Virus genome (UHGV): UHGV-0229204
Length of the DNA stretch: 11,049 bases
Reading direction: 5' to 3' (one strand)
Source of the DNA: a virus
This document shows, one piece after another, positions 3,054-10,160 of this stretch. Every line of letters starts with the position of its first letter. Within the stretch, counting starts at the first letter, position 1. A program made the translations under genes and the position numbers. The notes under the pieces were generated by a model that was not told the origin of the DNA, did no database searches, and saw nothing but the letters and a program-made list of their open reading frames with translations.

Positions 3054-3080
3054 ATAAAAAAAGCCACCGTCAGGTGGCTT
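3054..3080 (-). terminator. Intrinsic-terminator-like hairpin between I and J: perfect 8-bp palindromic stem AAGCCACC/GGTGGCTT, 4-nt loop, followed on the minus strand by TTTTTTAT
   Basis: Seen directly: plus strand 3061-3080 aagccacc gtca ggtggctt, preceded on the plus strand by an A-run at 3054-3060 (a U-tract on the minus strand). Lies in the 53-nt I-J intergenic gap, ending 10 nt upstream of the J ATG. Confidence 0.5.
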
Positions 3081-4397: not shown

Positions 4398-5156
4398 TTA
4401 TCCTCTCAGAAGTGAAGCGCCGGGGAACCCGCCATAATCCAGCTGTTCATTCTCTCCGAAGCGAGGTTTACAGCCCGTTGACAGCAATCCGGAGCAAACA
4501 TCCTGTGAAGGATCGTCCACCCGATTGCCGTCTTTATCGAACCAGCCGTTTTGCCCGGCGTAGGTGCAGCCGTTCCCGGTTTTGTACCAGCCACGCATGC
4601 ACCACGTGCACATTGGCTGAATTTGCCGGGTCGGAATGAGTTGCCCGCGCAGATCGGCTGGACTGGAAAGCTCAAATTCTACAGTTTCATCGTCTGATCC
4701 TGATTTACGGTCGATGTAATAAACCTGTTTGCGCTCCTCGTTGGGATTCGCAGTCTGGTTCCCATCAGGGAAGTTTCTGGCGTCCAGATAGTGTGCGAAG
4801 GTGTCATGGATGATCACCTTTGCTTTAGCCATCCCCTGAAATCTTCGGCACAGCGCGCCAATCGTGCCGCTGATGTTTGCAACGGTGAGAGACGGTCGTG
4901 AACACTGGCCGTCACTGCTGACAGATATGCCGGTCAGTTCATACGGCCACGCGCCATACTCCTGCCCCTGCCACCACACCGACTTCGGCTCAAGTTTTGA
5001 CTCGTCGCCGCCTGCGGCGATGATTTCCGCCTCGGTATGCGGGATTGTCTCGTTGTGAAAGCGAAGAATACCTGCACCGAAAGCTGAGCCGTCCACCTCG
5101 ATCAGGCGGACGCGCTTACCCGGCTCCAGTTTCTGGACATCAGATGAAATACTCAT
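4398..5156 (-). CDS. L: Minor tail (tail tip) protein, lambda gpL-like, with a C-terminal Cys cluster
   Basis: The track ORF 4398..5240 starts at an alternative codon inside M. The ATG at 5156 forms an ATGA overlap with the M stop and gives 252 aa (MSISSDVQKLEPGKRV...). The block ..WWQGQEYGAWPYELTGISVSSDGQCSRPSLTVANISG.. resembles lambda L ..TWQGRQYQPYPIQGSGFELNGKGTSTRPTLTVSNLYG... C-terminal cysteines (CTWC..GC..VCS..GCK) are present. Confidence 0.85.
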   Translation of the reverse strand: MSISSDVQKLEPGKRVRLIEVDGSAFGAGILRFHNETIPHTEAEIIAAGGDESKLEPKSVWWQGQEYGAWPYELTGISVSSDGQCSRPSLTVANISGTIGALCRRFQGMAKAKVIIHDTFAHYLDARNFPDGNQTANPNEERKQVYYIDRKSGSDDETVEFELSSPADLRGQLIPTRQIQPMCTWCMRGWYKTGNGCTYAGQNGWFDKDGNRVDDPSQDVCSGLLSTGCKPRFGENEQLDYGGFPGASLLRG

Positions 5157-5491
5157 GGGTGGTATGCCTGTGTGAATGTGCTGCTGAGGGTGTATTTTTT
5201 GTTGCCGTGTGTAGATATCTGAAAGGATTCCGCGCGCCATAAGCCTGATGGCTCAAGCGGCGACTTCCAGATAAATGATTTCCACCCGGCATGTCTGTTG
5301 AGAAAGTTTTTAATGGCCTGAATGTAAGCCTCATCGCCGGTAAAACTCACGCTCCATTGAGATGTTACCGGGTTGATACCATCCCCTGCCACCTGCGTAT
5401 AGCCATCGCCAAACTGTGCCTTTCGGGTACGAAAATTTGTATCAACCTGAGAGGCAACCTTTGGGCACCAGCTGAAGGTTTCTACTGTCAT
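5153..5491 (-). CDS. M: Minor tail protein, lambda gpM-like
   Basis: The track ORF starts at GTG 5518 inside the tape measure gene. The ATG at 5491 is preceded by AAGGGAG and lies 2 nt after the H stop, giving 112 aa (MTVETFSWCPKV...). ..QFGDGYTQ.. and ..HAGWKSFIWKSP.. resemble lambda M ..RFGDGYSQ.. and ..HGGWKSFLWTPP... Confidence 0.85.
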   Translation of the reverse strand: MTVETFSWCPKVASQVDTNFRTRKAQFGDGYTQVAGDGINPVTSQWSVSFTGDEAYIQAIKNFLNRHAGWKSFIWKSPLEPSGLWRAESFQISTHGNKKYTLSSTFTQAYHP

Positions 5492-5493
5492 GG

Positions 5494-8400
5494 TTAAACT
5501 CCCTTGATTAATCGCCACAGAGGCGAGCCCGGCATGCTGGCCTGTTCGTTAATGACGCCAGTGATGGCATCCTTAAGCTGCCTGCCTGCTGCTCCAGCAG
5601 TACCCTGACTGGCCGCCTGGGATGATCCGCCCTGAATATTGATATCGCCGAAGTTAACTGAAGGCATACCACCGGAGACCTGAGGAGTGCCAACAGCCCG
5701 AACGCCAAGCGAACCATCAGCGGCGCGCGTAAGCGGCATAATGGCTTCCGGACCAGCTTCGGCAAAAACCCCTGCACCTTTGGCAAAAGCAAACAGCTGA
5801 GGCGTCTGAAAAACGCCATTGCTGTAAGCGCTCAGGGACGGAGAGTCGTAAACATTACCCTTCGCATTAAAGGTAAAGTTCGCGCCAGCATTCTGAATAG
5901 CGGTACCGCTGCTGGCGGTAGCGGCTGACGAGGCACCAAAACTGAACAGTGAACCAATTGAGCTAACGCCATTAGCAACAGCCATATTCACCAGAACGTT
6001 CTGGATAATCTTCAGTACGCTGACGCCCCAGTCCTTCCAGCTATCAACGTTGCCATTGAGCATGTCGGTGATCGTGGTGACCGCGCCACCCATAGCCTGC
6101 TTCATGCCGTCAGCGGCCATGGAAGAATAATCAGTAGCTTCGTCCACCCAGTTCGCATAACCCTCAGACAGTCCCGTCATCCAGTCGTCACGCTGCGCAT
6201 CAGAAGCTGCGTAATATCCCTCCTGGTCGCGCAGGCGCTCATCGAGATAGCGCTTATTAAGTGCCAGTCCCTGCTGATAGAACGTCTCATCGATTTCACC
6301 AGCCTGACGCTGGCGGAGAAGATCGGTATTCTTCTGCTCGAACTCCTTACGCAGATTGAACTGCTCCTGAAGTCTTTCACGGAACCTGGTACCCTGCCCG
6401 TAACCCAGCAGTTGCCCTTCATTAGCTGCTCGGGCGCTGGCGTTACTGTCGGCGAGGTTGGCTTCGTAATTTCGCAGTTGCTCACGTAATTTAACCTGGT
6501 CAATCAGCGCAGCATTCTGCAATAACGTCTTTTTCTGGGCTTCTGTCAGAGAAGCAAGCTCGCCCTGGCTGACCTGGTATTTAACCTTCGCCAGTTCAGT
6601 ATTCTGGCCTTGCAGGGCAATCTGCTCTTTTTGCTGTTTGATCAGCTTGTCATAGGCATCAGCTGTTTTTTCCGCCTCGGATTTCCCGCCCTTATGGCGG
6701 CTTGAGTCACGAATAGCTTGCAACTGCCTGGCTGACTCAACTTCCATGCTGACATACTTCTCACGCCAACCAGCAGGGAGATTAAGGTCAGATGCATCGA
6801 ATTCCGCCTGCTTGCGGGTTTTGTCCAATCCCTTAAGACCGGACAACTCAAGCTGTCGCTGCGCCTTGTCTATAGCTTGCTGCTGCTTATTATCAAGTGC
6901 AGGAAGTACAGGCCCTGCATATTTTGGTGGGGACACTGCTGTAGACTGTCTGGAAACCTTGTTCAGACGGTCATACATCTCTGTAAGAGAACTTACGGCG
7001 CCAGCCATTTCTACTGTTTTATTTATAGCCTGATCAGTTATGTCGTTTATTAACTGTTGTGTTTGCTTTCTTTTATTGAGCATTTGCTCAAGTCGGCCTT
7101 CTTCAACCGCAAGTTCTGAAGCAAACTCTGCTGATTTCTCAACCGCATCGTTATACAGCCATGTTCCATCTGAAGCAGAATTGGCTGCTAATTTTGCGTT
7201 ATAAAGTTGATTGGATAATTCAGCAACTTTCTGCTTCTGCTGTTCAATCGCACTATTTTGAGCATCCAGTGAAATATTCGCCTGTCCAAGGTTGGCGGAT
7301 ATCTGCGTCTGAGACATTGATTTCAGATTATCTCGTACCTGCTCGATTGTGTCCGCATATTGGATTGCAGATTCCCTGGCTTGTTCTTGGCGTTGATACA
7401 TCGTGTACCACGCCCCAGCACCCAACATTAAAATTCCTGGCAAACCACCAACTAACGACAAAAGCCCCGTAGCGCCAGACTTGAATAAATTCATTACCGA
7501 TGTTGATCGGTTGAGTGCTTCTTGCGACGCTGATACTGCTTTATTTGACTGAACGAGAGTGGAATTGGCGGCTATCATTTCACGCCGTTTGGCAATAGAA
7601 TTTTGTGTAGCTGTCGCTTCTGCATTTGTGTTTTTTGCAAGTTCCAACTCGGATAGCGAGAGCTGATAAGCACGCTCGGCAGCAATCGCATCTGCTGCCG
7701 CCTTTCGTTGTGATTGGGTAGCAGATTCAGCCCTTGCAGATGCGAGCGCAATTTCGTTCTTTCTGGCATCTATTAATTGCGCCGTTTGGTTCCCAAGATC
7801 GCCAAACATCCCTCCAAGATAGCGAGCTCCACCTATTGCAGCCAAAGCTCCGGCAGCCGTAGCCACAGTGTCGATATTGTCAGAAACTGTATTCAATACA
7901 GCAACAAGAGCACTTGTCGCACCAGTAGCTTCATTAGCTCCACCTACCCATGCCATGAAAGCATTTTCGACTTTCGTCGTGGCAGCAGAAACGGTCTGCG
8001 GCATTGCCTCAAATTCACCACGCATAGTGCCAAGTTGACTTATCAGGGCCGGGACAACTTTATCTGCGGTTAGCATCCCCTGATCGGCCATTGCCTTCAG
8101 ATCTTTACGAGCTACACCCATCCCAGCGGCCAGCGCACGGATAACTCGATCACCGTTTTCGTTAACAGAGTTGAATTCCTCGCCCCGCAGAACGCCCTGA
8201 GCTAATGCCTGACTAAACTGGGTGATAACAGAACTTGCCTCTGCCGTGCTGGCGCCGGATAGCTTTAGTCCAGTAGAAATGGCCTCGGTTACATCCAGAA
8301 CTTGCTGCGAACTGTATCCGTATTCACGCATTGATGCGGCGGAACGCGCAAAAAGACTCGCATTATCAGAGAAGGCGGTTCCGGTTCGTTGGCTAATATC

Positions 8401-8760
8401 CATCAGCGCCCGCTGAGACTCCGTGAAATCATCAGACGATTGGGAAGCCTGCTTTAGCCTGGCATTAACAGAGCTCCATTCATCGGCCAGCGATATAAGA
8501 TGACCAGTCGCAAATGCTCCAGCAAATGCACCTGCCATTCCCAGCGCTGAGGCCTTCGCGGTGTTTATTTGACTAGTTACCTCAGCTAAGGCACGCTGAG
8601 TTTCACGCGAAGCTGCGGCCGCTTGGCGTCCTCCAGTCTGCATTACCCGGTAATAGTCATTCCCCATTCTTGAAGCACGAGAAATTTCAGACTGAAATGA
8701 CTGAGAGTTTGCAGATATTTTGATGATCAGTTCGCGCAACGTAGCCATATTTTCACCCAT
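5494..8760 (-). CDS. H: Tail tape measure protein, lambda gpH-like (1088 aa from ATG 8760; 1084 aa if the ATG at 8748 is used)
   Basis: Longest ORF in the window. Ala/Gln-rich, coiled-coil-like N-terminal and central regions, and a C-terminal segment (..NWVDEATDYSSMAADGMKQAMGG..VLKIIQNVLVNMAVANGVSSIGS..GTAIQNAGANFTFNAKG..) that matches the lambda gpH C-terminus (..SEWEESATDSMSQVK..VLSMMTEILLKQAMVGIVGSIGS..GTAIQAAAAKFHFATGG..) from memory. Positioned between G-T and M. A T8 run directly abuts the first ATG, so the second ATG (MATLRELI.., preceded by GGTGA) may be the real start. Confidence 0.92.
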   Translation of the reverse strand: MGENMATLRELIIKISANSQSFQSEISRASRMGNDYYRVMQTGGRQAAAASRETQRALAEVTSQINTAKASALGMAGAFAGAFATGHLISLADEWSSVNARLKQASQSSDDFTESQRALMDISQRTGTAFSDNASLFARSAASMREYGYSSQQVLDVTEAISTGLKLSGASTAEASSVITQFSQALAQGVLRGEEFNSVNENGDRVIRALAAGMGVARKDLKAMADQGMLTADKVVPALISQLGTMRGEFEAMPQTVSAATTKVENAFMAWVGGANEATGATSALVAVLNTVSDNIDTVATAAGALAAIGGARYLGGMFGDLGNQTAQLIDARKNEIALASARAESATQSQRKAAADAIAAERAYQLSLSELELAKNTNAEATATQNSIAKRREMIAANSTLVQSNKAVSASQEALNRSTSVMNLFKSGATGLLSLVGGLPGILMLGAGAWYTMYQRQEQARESAIQYADTIEQVRDNLKSMSQTQISANLGQANISLDAQNSAIEQQKQKVAELSNQLYNAKLAANSASDGTWLYNDAVEKSAEFASELAVEEGRLEQMLNKRKQTQQLINDITDQAINKTVEMAGAVSSLTEMYDRLNKVSRQSTAVSPPKYAGPVLPALDNKQQQAIDKAQRQLELSGLKGLDKTRKQAEFDASDLNLPAGWREKYVSMEVESARQLQAIRDSSRHKGGKSEAEKTADAYDKLIKQQKEQIALQGQNTELAKVKYQVSQGELASLTEAQKKTLLQNAALIDQVKLREQLRNYEANLADSNASARAANEGQLLGYGQGTRFRERLQEQFNLRKEFEQKNTDLLRQRQAGEIDETFYQQGLALNKRYLDERLRDQEGYYAASDAQRDDWMTGLSEGYANWVDEATDYSSMAADGMKQAMGGAVTTITDMLNGNVDSWKDWGVSVLKIIQNVLVNMAVANGVSSIGSLFSFGASSAATASSGTAIQNAGANFTFNAKGNVYDSPSLSAYSNGVFQTPQLFAFAKGAGVFAEAGPEAIMPLTRAADGSLGVRAVGTPQVSGGMPSVNFGDINIQGGSSQAASQGTAGAAGRQLKDAITGVINEQASMPGSPLWRLIKGV

Positions 8761-8785
8761 AAAAAAAACCCGCTTGATAGCGGGT
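8761..8785 (-). terminator. Intrinsic-terminator-like hairpin: 7-bp stem ACCCGCT/AGCGGGT, 4-nt loop, then T8 on the minus strand, immediately 3' of the moron ORF and abutting the tape measure ATG
   Basis: Seen directly: plus strand 8761-8785 aaaaaaaa cccgct tgat agcgggt; the minus strand reads ACCCGCTATCAAGCGGGTTTTTTTT followed by ATGGGTGAAAATATGGCT. Confidence 0.6.
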
Positions 8786-8791
8786 CGTGAG

Positions 8792-8980
8792 TTATAAACT
8801 GTCTTTTCTTTTGTGAGCGACTTGTATTAATAAATCTATTTGCGCATCTTGTTTTTTATTTATCTCTTTAAGGGCTTCAACTTGTTCATTTGCCCTTGTG
8901 CTAAACCGTATTAAATAAAAAATCACAATTAGATTTATCAACCAGCCGAATATTCCAAACACTACTACCAGTGGTTCCAT
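8792..8980 (-). CDS. Small single-pass membrane protein (62 aa) encoded by an AT-rich moron between T and H; candidate YebO-like / HK97 gp15-like superinfection-exclusion protein
   Basis: ATG at 8980 preceded by a strong AAGGAGG (4-nt spacer). Product MEPLVVVFGIFGWLINLIVIFYLIRFSTRANEQVEALKEINKKQDAQIDLLIQVAHKRKDSL has an N-terminal hydrophobic helix and a charged helical tail. Local GC is about 30% against about 52-55% in flanking tail genes. Followed by the hairpin + T8. The track ORF 8792..9037 begins at an upstream alternative start with no RBS. Confidence 0.65.
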   Translation of the reverse strand: MEPLVVVFGIFGWLINLIVIFYLIRFSTRANEQVEALKEINKKQDAQIDLLIQVAHKRKDSL

Positions 8981-9037: not shown

Positions 9038-9708
9038 TTATTGTGTCGCAGCTGTAAGAGCAGCCTCAAGCCCTGCAAACGGGTCCTTCGGTGCTGATTG
9101 CTCATCACCACCCCAGCGCAGGATCGCATCGTCCAGCGGTACTTTTGCCCCCTGCGAGCCGTAGATGGCAGAGACGAGCTGGGCTGCCTGAATGTCACCA
9201 CGGATATCGCCAACCGGACTTTGCCTGTCGTACTCAATCCACATCAGAAGCTCGCTTGCCGTCATATTCTGCCGAAGCTCTGAGAGCGTGCGCCCCATCC
9301 GGAGCGCAAGCGACATCAGAAACTTTACGCCGGGGGTTGAGACTTTTCCCGCGCTTCGTCCGCATTGTTGATCAGGTCAAGCGCCTGTTTGAGCAGGCGT
9401 GAATGGACGGGGCCGTAGATTTCACGCACCTGCTCTTCTTCGTCTACGCTGAATACCGGCTGCTTATCGGTGTCACACAGAACGTCAATGAAGAGCACCA
9501 CGTCAGCGCAAAGATTACGGTGTGCCTTTTCCGATACCGACACATTTTCATCATCAGTACCCGCTTTCACCACCTCCTGCCAGCGCAGCCAGGCTTCACC
9601 TGACGGCTCACGCAGAACCACTTTGACGCCCTCCCACTCAGGAACGGCGACCGTCTTATGACGAAATCCCGACATCTTAGCCAGGGCGAGATTTTTAATA
9701 TTCTTCAT
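9038..9708 (-). CDS. T: Tail assembly chaperone G-T fusion, made by a programmed -1 ribosomal frameshift near the end of G; the T segment is ORF 9038..9351 in the -1 frame
   Basis: The downstream ORF (..MSLALRMGRTLSELRQNMTASELLMWIEYDRQSP..) is in the -1 frame relative to G, overlaps the G 3' end, and has no RBS before its internal ATG at 9316. The -1 frame is open from a TGA at 9379-9377 through the G stop. A GGGAAAAG slippery-like run sits at 9343-9350. This matches the conserved G/GT arrangement upstream of tape measure genes. Confidence 0.75.
9325..9708 (-). CDS. G: Tail assembly chaperone, lambda gpG-like (127 aa)
   Basis: ATG at 9708 with GAGAGG 6 nt upstream. Acidic small protein (..VDEEEQVREIYGPVHSRLLKQALDLINNADEAREKSQPPA) located between the major tail gene and the T frame, with the slippery site near its 3' end. 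Confidence 0.8.
   Translation of the reverse strand: MKNIKNLALAKMSGFRHKTVAVPEWEGVKVVLREPSGEAWLRWQEVVKAGTDDENVSVSEKAHRNLCADVVLFIDVLCDTDKQPVFSVDEEEQVREIYGPVHSRLLKQALDLINNADEAREKSQPPA
9343..9351 (-). promoter_or_regulatory. Putative -1 programmed frameshift slippery site, minus strand C GGG AAA AG (zero-frame codons CGG GAA AAG)
   Basis: Seen directly at the G 3' end. Resembles the lambda G GGA AAG site but is offset by one nucleotide and has an extra A. An A-site tRNA-Lys slip from AAG to AAA is possible. Confidence 0.5.
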
Positions 9709-9716
9709 GCGACCTC

Positions 9717-10160
9717 TCAGGAGCCAGACTCGATGTTTTCAGGCTTACCTTTCAGGCGCAGGGAGAACGTTGCCGCAACTACGCCGTTGGTACCGGAAGA
9801 CCAGGTGTGCTGGCGGATTTCAGCCAGGAACTTAAAGCCCTTGCCGGACGGGAAGATAACCTGGAAAGCGTAGGTCGTATCGTTGTCATACGCTTCACGC
9901 AAGGCGTCCTGCGCCGGGTTTTTGTAGAAGTTGCCGGACAGAGAGATTTCTGACGGAGAAGGCAGGCCGTTGATGTTCTCCTGCTCGGTAGAGCAAAGCG
10001 TGGTTACGTCGATATCCTGCTTCTGGCCACCAGTGAACTGAATTTCTTTGATGGTGCAACTCAGATCGAGGAAGGTTGCGGTATCCATCGTTTCTTTGGT
10101 GGCTGGCGCAGAGGAAATAAGGATCTTCGTCAGCTGCGATTTTTCATAAAGTGCAGACAT
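9717..10160 (-). CDS. Major tail tube protein (147 aa), homologous to the lambda gpV N-terminal tube domain, with no C-terminal Ig-like domain
   Basis: ATG at 10160 with AGGAGA 7 nt upstream. ..DNDTTYAFQVIFPSGKGFKFLAEI.. resembles lambda V ..[23 protein letters not shown]... Sits directly upstream of G, as V does in lambda. The stop TGA overlaps the G RBS. Confidence 0.8.
   Translation of the reverse strand: MSALYEKSQLTKILISSAPATKETMDTATFLDLSCTIKEIQFTGGQKQDIDVTTLCSTEQENINGLPSPSEISLSGNFYKNPAQDALREAYDNDTTYAFQVIFPSGKGFKFLAEIRQHTWSSGTNGVVAATFSLRLKGKPENIESGS

Follow-up and report, generated by a model that had tools for sequence, protein, structure and literature searches.

Tape measure gene and flanking features

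The minus strand of the window (the 11,049 nucleotides of UHGV-0229204 analysed here) carries an open reading frame at 5494..8760, 1088 amino acids long when counted from its first ATG. Three Pfam domains are found in it, each scoring above its gathering score (the Pfam cut-off): TMP_3 (PF20155; 195 bits, cut-off 41, E = 9e-58), Phage_HK97_TLTM (PF06120; 119 bits, cut-off 24) and Tape_meas_lam_C (PF09718; 45 bits, cut-off 23). PHROG 339, 'tail length tape measure protein', matches at full length (1132 bits, residues 5-1087 of the 1088-aa ORF). On the strength of these domains and the full-length match a chance ORF was rejected. The features on which the analysis rests are as follows; residues are in the numbering of the 1084-aa product, in which TMP_3 covers 83-272 (87-276 in the 1088-aa ORF).

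8792..8980, minus strand: gp15-type moron, encoding a small membrane protein (62 aa, YebO family), with an AGGAGG ribosome-binding site of its own
8761..8786, minus strand: intrinsic-terminator-like hairpin and T8 between the gp15 moron and H (terminator scan and RNA fold)
8749..8760, minus strand: 12-base leader ATGGGTGAAAAT, with the upstream in-frame ATG (8760) and the GGGTGA Shine-Dalgarno (8757-8752)
5494..8748, minus strand: gene for the tape measure protein, orthologous to HK97 H/gp16; 1084 aa when read from ATG 8748, the start preferred here
7921..8490, minus strand: N-terminal TMP_3 domain, residues 83-272 (Pfam PF20155)
7405..7479, minus strand: strongest hydrophobic segment, SGATGLLSLVGGLPGILMLGAGAWY, residues 424-448 (Kyte-Doolittle, 19-residue window mean 1.69)
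5869..6414, minus strand: lambda-homologous module, residues 779-960, holding Tape_meas_lam_C and residues 907-925 (lambda alignment)
5497..5686, minus strand: C-terminal ~63 residues (1021-1084), LAU1-like and not HK97-like (alignment)
5494-5496, minus strand: stop codon of the tape measure gene

The protein is 92% identical to HK97 gp16 (1089 aa) over residues 1-1020, and the gene 91% identical to HK97 H at the nucleotide level. An E. coli EC2001 prophage encodes a tape measure protein with 99% amino acid identity, and the exact 1084-aa product is already recorded in GCA_052187455.1. The domain models together with the near full-length similarity to gp16 place the protein among the HK97 gp16/H-type tape measure proteins, and its position agrees: the gene lies between the G/GT chaperone pair and the tip genes M-J. 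The chaperone ORFs are 5' of it (Phage_TAC_1 at 9325..9708, Phage_tail_T at 9038..9316) and Phage_min_tail (M), L, K (JAB and NlpC/P60), I and J are 3' of it, so that the HK97 gene order (gp10, tail terminator, tube, G, T, gp15, H, M, L, K, I, J) is kept. Tandem or periodic DNA repeats were not found within the gene, nor any Rfam family at gathering threshold across the whole window. Judged by sequence, the gene is the familiar HK97 tape measure gene, present in a prophage as an ordinary and intact copy.

Two hydrophobic segments of the protein, residues 424-448 and the weaker 907-925 (mean hydropathy 1.40), could insert into a membrane as the DNA is injected. SGATGLLSLVGGLPGILMLGAGAWY is a candidate membrane-inserting segment, a role proposed by analogy with lambda gpH (PMC12617516); for both segments a part in injection is suggested by studies of lambda and HK97.

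The upstream terminator named in the original prediction is borne out by the terminator scan, which returns a hairpin at 8786..8767 (8 pairs, 5 of them G-C, loop of 4) and T8 at 8768-8761; the hairpin is also present in the minimum-energy fold. The element follows an HK97-type gp15 moron that the prediction had missed, and is best explained as the terminator of that well-studied exclusion region. This small YebO-like gene lies between T and H, ahead of the hairpin and T8, and has a deviant GC content (33-37% vs ~52-57% in the flanks). Its product is 95% identical to HK97 gp15, the superinfection exclusion protein, and matches Pfam YebO (38.9 bits, cut-off 27) and PHROG 5031. HK97 gp15 has a superinfection exclusion function and is expressed from the prophage (PMC3594210). 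No sigma-70 promoter for the moron reached the scan threshold between 8500 and 10300; a weak promoter-like TTCACA-17-TACGCT was spotted by eye at ~9030-9002. The HK97 and mEp234 records annotate a terminator at the equivalent place. Relatives have hairpins of differing sequence and T runs at this position, and a hairpin and T run precede H also in relatives without a moron ORF. The element may thus, though less probably, be a conserved attenuator that sets a low dose of tape measure protein and not a part of the moron.

Start codon of the tape measure gene

Around the start the minus strand reads ...GACCCGCTATCAAGCGGGTTTTTTTT ATG GGT GAA AAT ATG GCT ACG... As the original prediction had it, the first ATG (8760) stands directly 3' of the T8 run and has no clear Shine-Dalgarno, and the second ATG (8748), 12 nt further downstream, is preceded by GGTGA (GGGTGA and a 4-nt spacer). 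The duplex with the anti-Shine-Dalgarno is calculated at -8.3 kcal/mol for the second ATG vs -5.7 kcal/mol for the first, where the pairing draws on bases of the terminator hairpin's 3' arm. When the start region is folded the terminator hairpin is the sole notable feature and the second ATG is not occluded; overall the fold is not unusual (z = -1.3).

The family profiles of PHROG begin their alignment at residue 5 of the 1088-aa ORF. HK97, mEp234, four PGAP-annotated E. coli genomes and GCA_052187455.1 all have the second ATG annotated as the start, and none of these annotations uses the first. The literature searched yielded neither a tail length measured for HK97 nor N-terminal sequencing of gp16.

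More distant relatives were compared at 20 loci (19 genome loci and Salmonella phage SW-37). The protein begins with MA[TSK]LRELIIK in all 20, and an in-frame upstream start codon is found in none; in 13 the conserved start is preceded by an in-frame stop at a distance of 0-3 codons (0-1 codons in 12). Nine of the 20 share the T-run/GGTGA leader. Among these nine the upstream ATG is 11 nt away in five (L010, L022, L023, L025 and SW-37) and 13 nt away in L019, spacings that put it out of frame in all six, while the remaining three have another triplet in its place (ATA in L011, ATT in L024, TTA in L005). L011 is a Serratia locus. In the same-leader relatives the TGA within GGTGA turns into an in-frame stop. 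The in-frame 12-nt spacing is confined to the HK97 group, where all 8 copies examined have it.

The relatives' start, the comparison of leader frames and the HK97/NCBI annotation point to the second ATG, so translation almost certainly starts at 8748 and gives a protein of 1084 residues; on the same sequence comparison ATGGGTGAAAAT (8749..8760) is most likely an untranslated leader. Initiation at 8760 instead, giving 1088 residues with an MGEN extension, is highly improbable. That codon is the first in-frame ATG past the upstream stop and stays in frame throughout the HK97 group, but the 15 nt preceding it are taken up by the U8 tract together with a stable hairpin's 3' arm, its equivalent is mutated or out of frame in the same-leader relatives, and neither profiles nor annotations include it. 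Use of both codons, with proteins of 1088 and of 1084 residues made side by side, is very unlikely and meets the same objections. Two in-frame ATGs 12 nt apart could in principle allow leaky initiation, and their spacing is preserved across the HK97 group, although this may simply reflect close kinship (91-97% nucleotide identity). Four residues, each worth 0.15 nm, would in any case add up to 0.6 nm, far less than one tube ring (~4 nm), and would leave tail length unaffected. Minor initiation at the upstream ATG may occur within the HK97 group. The four-residue uncertainty raised by the original prediction is real when the single sequence is considered, but is settled in favour of 8748 by the relatives' reading frames, the Shine-Dalgarno energies and the HK97 and PGAP annotations. 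The same leader motif standing in a different frame across relatives offers a cheap general test for near-cognate start ambiguities.

Tail length and the short tube gene

That tape measure length sets tail length, with in-frame deletions or duplications altering the tail in proportion, is established for lambda and TP901-1 (PMC5099701; Katsura), and the ruler figure is 0.145-0.15 nm of tail per residue (PMC5099701). Lambda gpH has 853 residues (NC_001416 H 10542..13103; also PMC12617516), and the ~1.27-fold length first estimated for the window's protein was reproduced (1084/853 = 1.271; 1088/853 = 1.275). The extra ~231-235 residues all lie N-terminal to the lambda-homologous module. The prediction of a proportionally longer tail is sound in its reasoning and in its model, but strict proportionality to lambda is only approximate because just ~180 alignable residues are shared with gpH. 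Nor is the prediction new: as the protein is an orthologue of HK97 gp16/H, it reduces to a tail like that of HK97, a known phage type. Since the lengths of this protein and gp16 are no more than 5 residues apart and the tube domain has 91% identity to that of HK97 gp12, the tail should be of HK97 length, exceeding lambda's by a calculated ~35 nm, or about 8 rings. The 5-residue difference from gp16 sits in the swapped, presumed tip-binding C-terminal end. The HK97 tail is probably ~177-180 nm long, a background figure that carries no weight in the argument; lambda's is about 135-150 nm.

On the model of lambda and HK97, transcription of the late genes would read through the terminator at 8761-8786 for H to be expressed; the G/GT chaperones, whose genes lie upstream, would hold the tape measure protein while the 147-residue tube protein polymerises round the tape measure core, the length of which would fix the number of tube rings. 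The tape measure would later exit the tail and help to build a DNA channel across the envelope.

The tube protein (147 aa) is a tube domain in full, with 91% identity to residues 1-145 of HK97 gp12, and has no C-terminal I-set Ig domain; its gene closes with a clean stop codon, 8 nt ahead of G. PGAP flags the EC2001 tube gene as a pseudogene ('incomplete; missing C-terminus') and in GCA_052187455.1 the gene is not called. A pseudogene is unlikely, since two phages with deposited genomes, LAU1 (97% identical) and AsXd-1 (equally short at this position), carry this short gene as well. The annotation of the tube gene would suit an element that makes no tail in spite of an intact tape measure gene, and the ~127 residues of TP901-1 that make no contribution to tail length (PMC5099701) would suit a partial ruler, with a tail off the simple ratio. 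Such an outcome we consider unlikely: what the tube protein lacks is solely an Ig-like decoration domain, of a kind peripheral to the tail tube (PMC9022992), the two phages share the short gene, and the neighbouring structural ORFs are all open, those from terminase to tail fibre being intact in the GCA_052187455.1 contig. The element is therefore likely to be functional as far as its sequence can tell, and the expected virion would be a siphovirus resembling HK97, its tail smooth (Ig-less) and as long as that of HK97.

E. coli was rejected as the host, since the flanking aspS shares only ~90.6% identity with the E. coli gene and the closest prophage in E. coli matches at 97%. We hold it very probable that the element is an HK97-like (Hendrixvirinae-type) prophage of an enterobacterium other than E. 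coli, with a tape measure protein of 1084 residues that starts at 8748 (MATLRELIIK) and a tail of HK97 length. The correct annotation is an HK97-type tape measure protein of 1084 aa from 8748, and the gene has little significance beyond this.

Relation to HK97, LAU1 and lambda

The closest copies are those of E. coli EC2001 (WP_406682329.1, 99% protein identity) and GCA_052187455.1 (100%), both 1084 aa from the second ATG; the latter has T7, not T8, before the first ATG and otherwise shows no substantive difference. HK97 gp16 (gene H; NP_037710; NC_002167 8435..11704) has the same three Pfam domains and the same start context (terminator, T run, ATGGGTGAAAAT, ATG), with the gp15 moron upstream and gene M 2 nt past the tape measure stop. 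It differs in that the window's last ~63 residues are LAU1-type, matched with LAU1-type M, L, K, I and J, and in that gp12 carries an Ig-like domain which the window's tube protein lacks. The HK97 megablast match ends at query position 3075, whereas the LAU1 match runs on through M to J. In lambda, gpH residues 818-849 bind gpI (PMC12617516), and the C-terminal ~63 residues of the window's protein are presumed to be its tip-binding end.

The tape measure proteins of Enterobacter phage LAU1 and Aeromonas phage AsXd-1 have 1154 aa. From residue ~686 onwards LAU1 is near-identical up to the C-terminus, and both phages share the short tube gene, the chaperones and the tip genes with the window, but the N-terminal two thirds of their tape measure proteins show only distant similarity and hold ~70 additional residues. 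Neither has the gp15/YebO moron; its position is occupied by an unrelated ORF of 55 aa in LAU1 and by an ORF of 116 aa in AsXd-1. gp15 and the first ~685 tape measure residues form an HK97-type block in an otherwise LAU1-like tail module, the chaperones upstream and the tape measure C-terminus and tip genes downstream being LAU1-like. If gp15 acts on the HK97-type part of an incoming tape measure, the exclusion gene and its target would be a linked cassette. We tentatively propose, as a conjecture with the odds against it, that the two are inherited in this way, with the C-terminal ~63 residues travelling with the tip proteins and the hairpin before H as a possible attenuator.

Lambda gpH has the same role and the same place in the tail gene order. 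Similarity is confined to a C-terminal module (residues 779-960 vs lambda 541-733, 32% identity, E = 7e-15), which includes the Tape_meas_lam_C region and a hydrophobic, glycine-rich stretch; the N-terminal ~780 residues of the window's protein have no detectable similarity to gpH. A place in a strict lambda gpH family was rejected, full-length homology being absent and the alignment significant only over residues 779-960. In lambda, T and H overlap with neither moron nor terminator between them. By these alignments the window's protein is a functional analogue of lambda gpH with a shared C-terminal module.

The tape measure gene and its mosaic tail operon

The tail length tape measure protein (TMP) is encoded on the minus strand by an open frame at 5494..8760 (3267 nt, 1088 codons counted from the first in-frame ATG). 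The protein is 92% identical to its orthologue gp16 of HK97 (1089 aa), 99% identical to a protein of the E. coli EC2001 prophage and 70% identical to that of Enterobacter phage LAU1 (1154 aa); the first 3075 nt of the gene are 91% identical to gene H of HK97, HK106, mEp234, HK633, mEpX1 and HK75. The Pfam families TMP_3, Phage_HK97_TLTM and Tape_meas_lam_C all match well over threshold, and a match to PHROG 339 spans the full length. The gene order is that of the HK97 tail operon [HK97-gp10-like, tail completion, tube, G, T, a 62-aa YebO-family ORF, H, M, L, K (JAB and NlpC/P60), I and J], the J frame being open and continuing past the window edge. As a finding, the TMP holds no surprise for a phage specialist.

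Longest-ORF calling places M at 5153-5518 (-) with start GTG 5518 and L at 4398-5240 (-) with start ATG 5240. Both starts are probably wrong. The most likely start of M is ATG 5491 (112 aa; Shine-Dalgarno pairing -7.9 kcal/mol), 2 nt past the TMP stop as in HK97, and that of L is ATG 5156 (252 aa), a length that agrees with the HK97, EC2001 and parent-contig genes. Near the end of the chaperone gene G, GGGAAAAG lies at 9343-9350 (-), and across it the -1 frame, that of T, stays open; a G/GT programmed -1 frameshift region is expected here. The zero-frame phase, CGG GAA AAG, differs from that of the lambda site, G GGA AAG.

Comparison with HK97 and LAU1 places two joints in the TMP gene.

~5686 (-), mosaic joint in the TMP gene
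~6693 (-), mosaic joint in the TMP gene

From the gp10-like gene down to T the operon resembles both phages; the gp15 moron and TMP residues 1 to ~685 are of HK97 type only, residues ~686-1020 are common to both, and residues 1021-1084 together with M, L, K, I and J are contiguous and of LAU1 type only. By these alignments, gp15 and the N-terminal two thirds of TMP form a single block of HK97 type within a tail module that otherwise resembles that of LAU1. Since the extreme C-terminus of lambda gpH binds the tip protein gpI (PMC12617516), a joint that leaves the final ~63 residues linked to the tip genes is functionally sensible. The patchwork is ordinary lambdoid mosaicism. Within the TMP gene, GC falls to 40-43% at 6900-7300 (residues ~480-615; most of the remaining gene is at ~50-57%), coinciding with the part of TMP most diverged from LAU1, and this central segment may have been acquired separately.

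The exact 1084-aa TMP is recorded in assembly GCA_052187455.1, the parent contig of which is 99.98% identical to the window. In this contig the head-and-tail module is intact from terminase to tail fibre, and its end adjoins yecD and aspS of the host. This aspS shares only ~90.6% identity with that of E. coli, so the host is another enterobacterium. The contig stretch 19342-23255, downstream of J and outside the window, encodes a 363-aa tail fibre carrying a Peptidase_S74 chaperone domain, DinI and a UmuD/LexA-like S24-peptidase, and then come the host genes ynaM, a yecD-like isochorismatase and aspS, which places one prophage end there.

Translation start of the tape measure protein

The start region reads, 5' to 3' on the minus strand, GACCCGCTATCAAGCGGGTTTTTTTT-ATG-GGT-GAA-AAT-ATG-GCT-ACG. 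The original prediction described a first ATG (ATG-1, 8760; 1088 aa) abutting a T8 run and a second (ATG-2, 8748; 1084 aa) preceded by GGTGA, and the minus-strand sequence and a terminator scan bear this out. Immediately 5' of ATG-2 stand GGGTGA and a 4-nt spacer.

The region was compared with relatives from a species-level genome collection (loci with L numbers) and with phage and E. coli records. Twenty loci fall outside the HK97 group (Klebsiella, Symbiopectobacterium, Serratia, Morganella, Pantoea, Enterobacter, Kosakonia, a Pseudomonas assembly and Salmonella phage SW-37). In all 20 the protein begins MA(T/S/K)LRELIIK(I/V)SA(N/D)S, and none has an in-frame ATG, GTG or TTG between this conserved start and the preceding stop, which in 13 lies 0-3 codons before the start. 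The leader itself (T run, triplet, GGTGA and short A-rich spacer) is kept in nine of the 20. An upstream ATG is found 11 nt before the start in L010, L022, L023, L025 and SW-37 and 13 nt before it in L019, out of frame in all six; the TGA of GGTGA is an in-frame stop one codon 5' of the start in L022, L023, L025 and SW-37, L019 has an in-frame TAA immediately 5' of the start, and L010 carries GGTGGA without TGA. Elsewhere the ATG is replaced by ATA (L011), ATT (L024) or TTA (L005). The 12-nt spacing with an in-frame upstream ATG is confined to the HK97 group (HK97, mEp234, four E. coli prophages, the parent contig and the window), where the T run varies between T7 and T8, as expected of non-coding DNA.

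PHROG profile alignments start at residue 5 of the 1088-aa ORF. Pairing with the 16S rRNA 3'-end is -8.3 kcal/mol for ATG-2, which ranks within roughly the upper 10% of minus-strand ATGs across the window and is comparable to neighbouring genes; ATG-1 reaches -5.7 kcal/mol, using bases from the hairpin 3' arm. ATG-2 is also the start annotated in the HK97 and mEp234 records, by PGAP in the four E. coli genomes and in the parent-assembly gene call. Very probably, then, TMP is 1084 aa long and bases 8749-8760, twelve in all, belong to the leader. The two candidate ATGs of the original prediction stand; the four-residue ambiguity it left is resolved for ATG-2 by the relatives' leaders, the profiles, Shine-Dalgarno pairing and the annotations. 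Four residues amount to 0.6 nm of tail, far below one tube ring.

The upstream hairpin and the gp15 moron

The terminator scan finds an 8-bp hairpin at 8786..8767 (-), followed by the T8 run touching ATG-1. HK97 and mEp234 records annotate a terminator at exactly this position, so the T8 belongs to a known element. The terminator is present as originally described; it had been taken as anonymous, though it adjoins a moron. The 62-aa ORF between T and H (8792..8980, -) is 95% identical to HK97 gp15 and has a strong AGGAGG ribosome-binding site. GC drops to 33-37% here against 52-57% in the flanks, a moron signature. HK97 gp15, the first moron product described, is an inner-membrane, prophage-expressed protein that blocks DNA entry by superinfecting HK97-type phages (PMC3594210).

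The T-H junction is a hotspot for insertions, as seen in the 900 nt that precede the TMP start in loci L005-L026 and L086. In Klebsiella (L005) the cargo ORF is a homologue of gp15 and in Serratia (L010) it encodes a 65-aa membrane protein similar to gp15; Symbiopectobacterium, Pseudomonas and Kosakonia carry signal-peptide or lipoprotein-like ORFs, and some relatives have none. Four of these (L011, L022, L023 and L025) still have a GC-rich hairpin and T run upstream of H, with different stem sequences and pairing retained.

Tail tube and tail length

The major tail tube gene (9717-10160, -) encodes 147 aa vs 234 aa in HK97 (gp12). In the alignment the C-terminal I-set Ig-like domain (assigned in PMC9022992) is cleanly lost and the complete tube domain, 91% identical to that of gp12, is kept; the stop lies 8 nt before G. 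In EC2001 the PGAP annotation marks it as a pseudogene, and GCA_052187455.1 has no gene called there. Because the deposited phage LAU1 has this 444-nt gene as well (97% protein identity), and phage AsXd-1 a gene of 444 nt at this position (compared by length and position), we regard the short gene as probably functional and predict an undecorated tail.

Lambda gpH has 853 aa, as originally stated (PMC12617516; NC_001416 H 10542..13103), giving a length ratio of 1.271 (1084 aa) or 1.275 (1088 aa). The ruler principle is established, with 0.145-0.15 nm of tail per TMP residue and deletion mutants that change length proportionally (PMC5099701). A value of 0.15 nm per residue translates into ~163 nm for 1084 aa and ~128 nm for the 853 aa of lambda, so the model predicts a tail exceeding lambda's by roughly 35 nm; multiplying the 150 nm of the lambda tail (PMC9022992) by 1.27 gives ~190 nm, for a predicted range of ~163-190 nm. 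Only TMP residues 779-960 align with gpH (541-733, 32% identity). Beyond this module the two have similar numbers of residues (124 vs 120), placing all ~235 extra residues in the N-terminal and central TMP. A measured HK97 tail length was not found in the accessible literature, and the comparison with lambda is thus model-based.

A more direct statement than the lambda ratio comes from HK97 itself. The TMP is within five residues of gp16 in length, the difference sitting in the swapped C-terminal end; with this and the closely similar tube domain, the tail should match that of HK97 in length. The original interpretation is reasonable, and what it says on tail length was already known from HK97.
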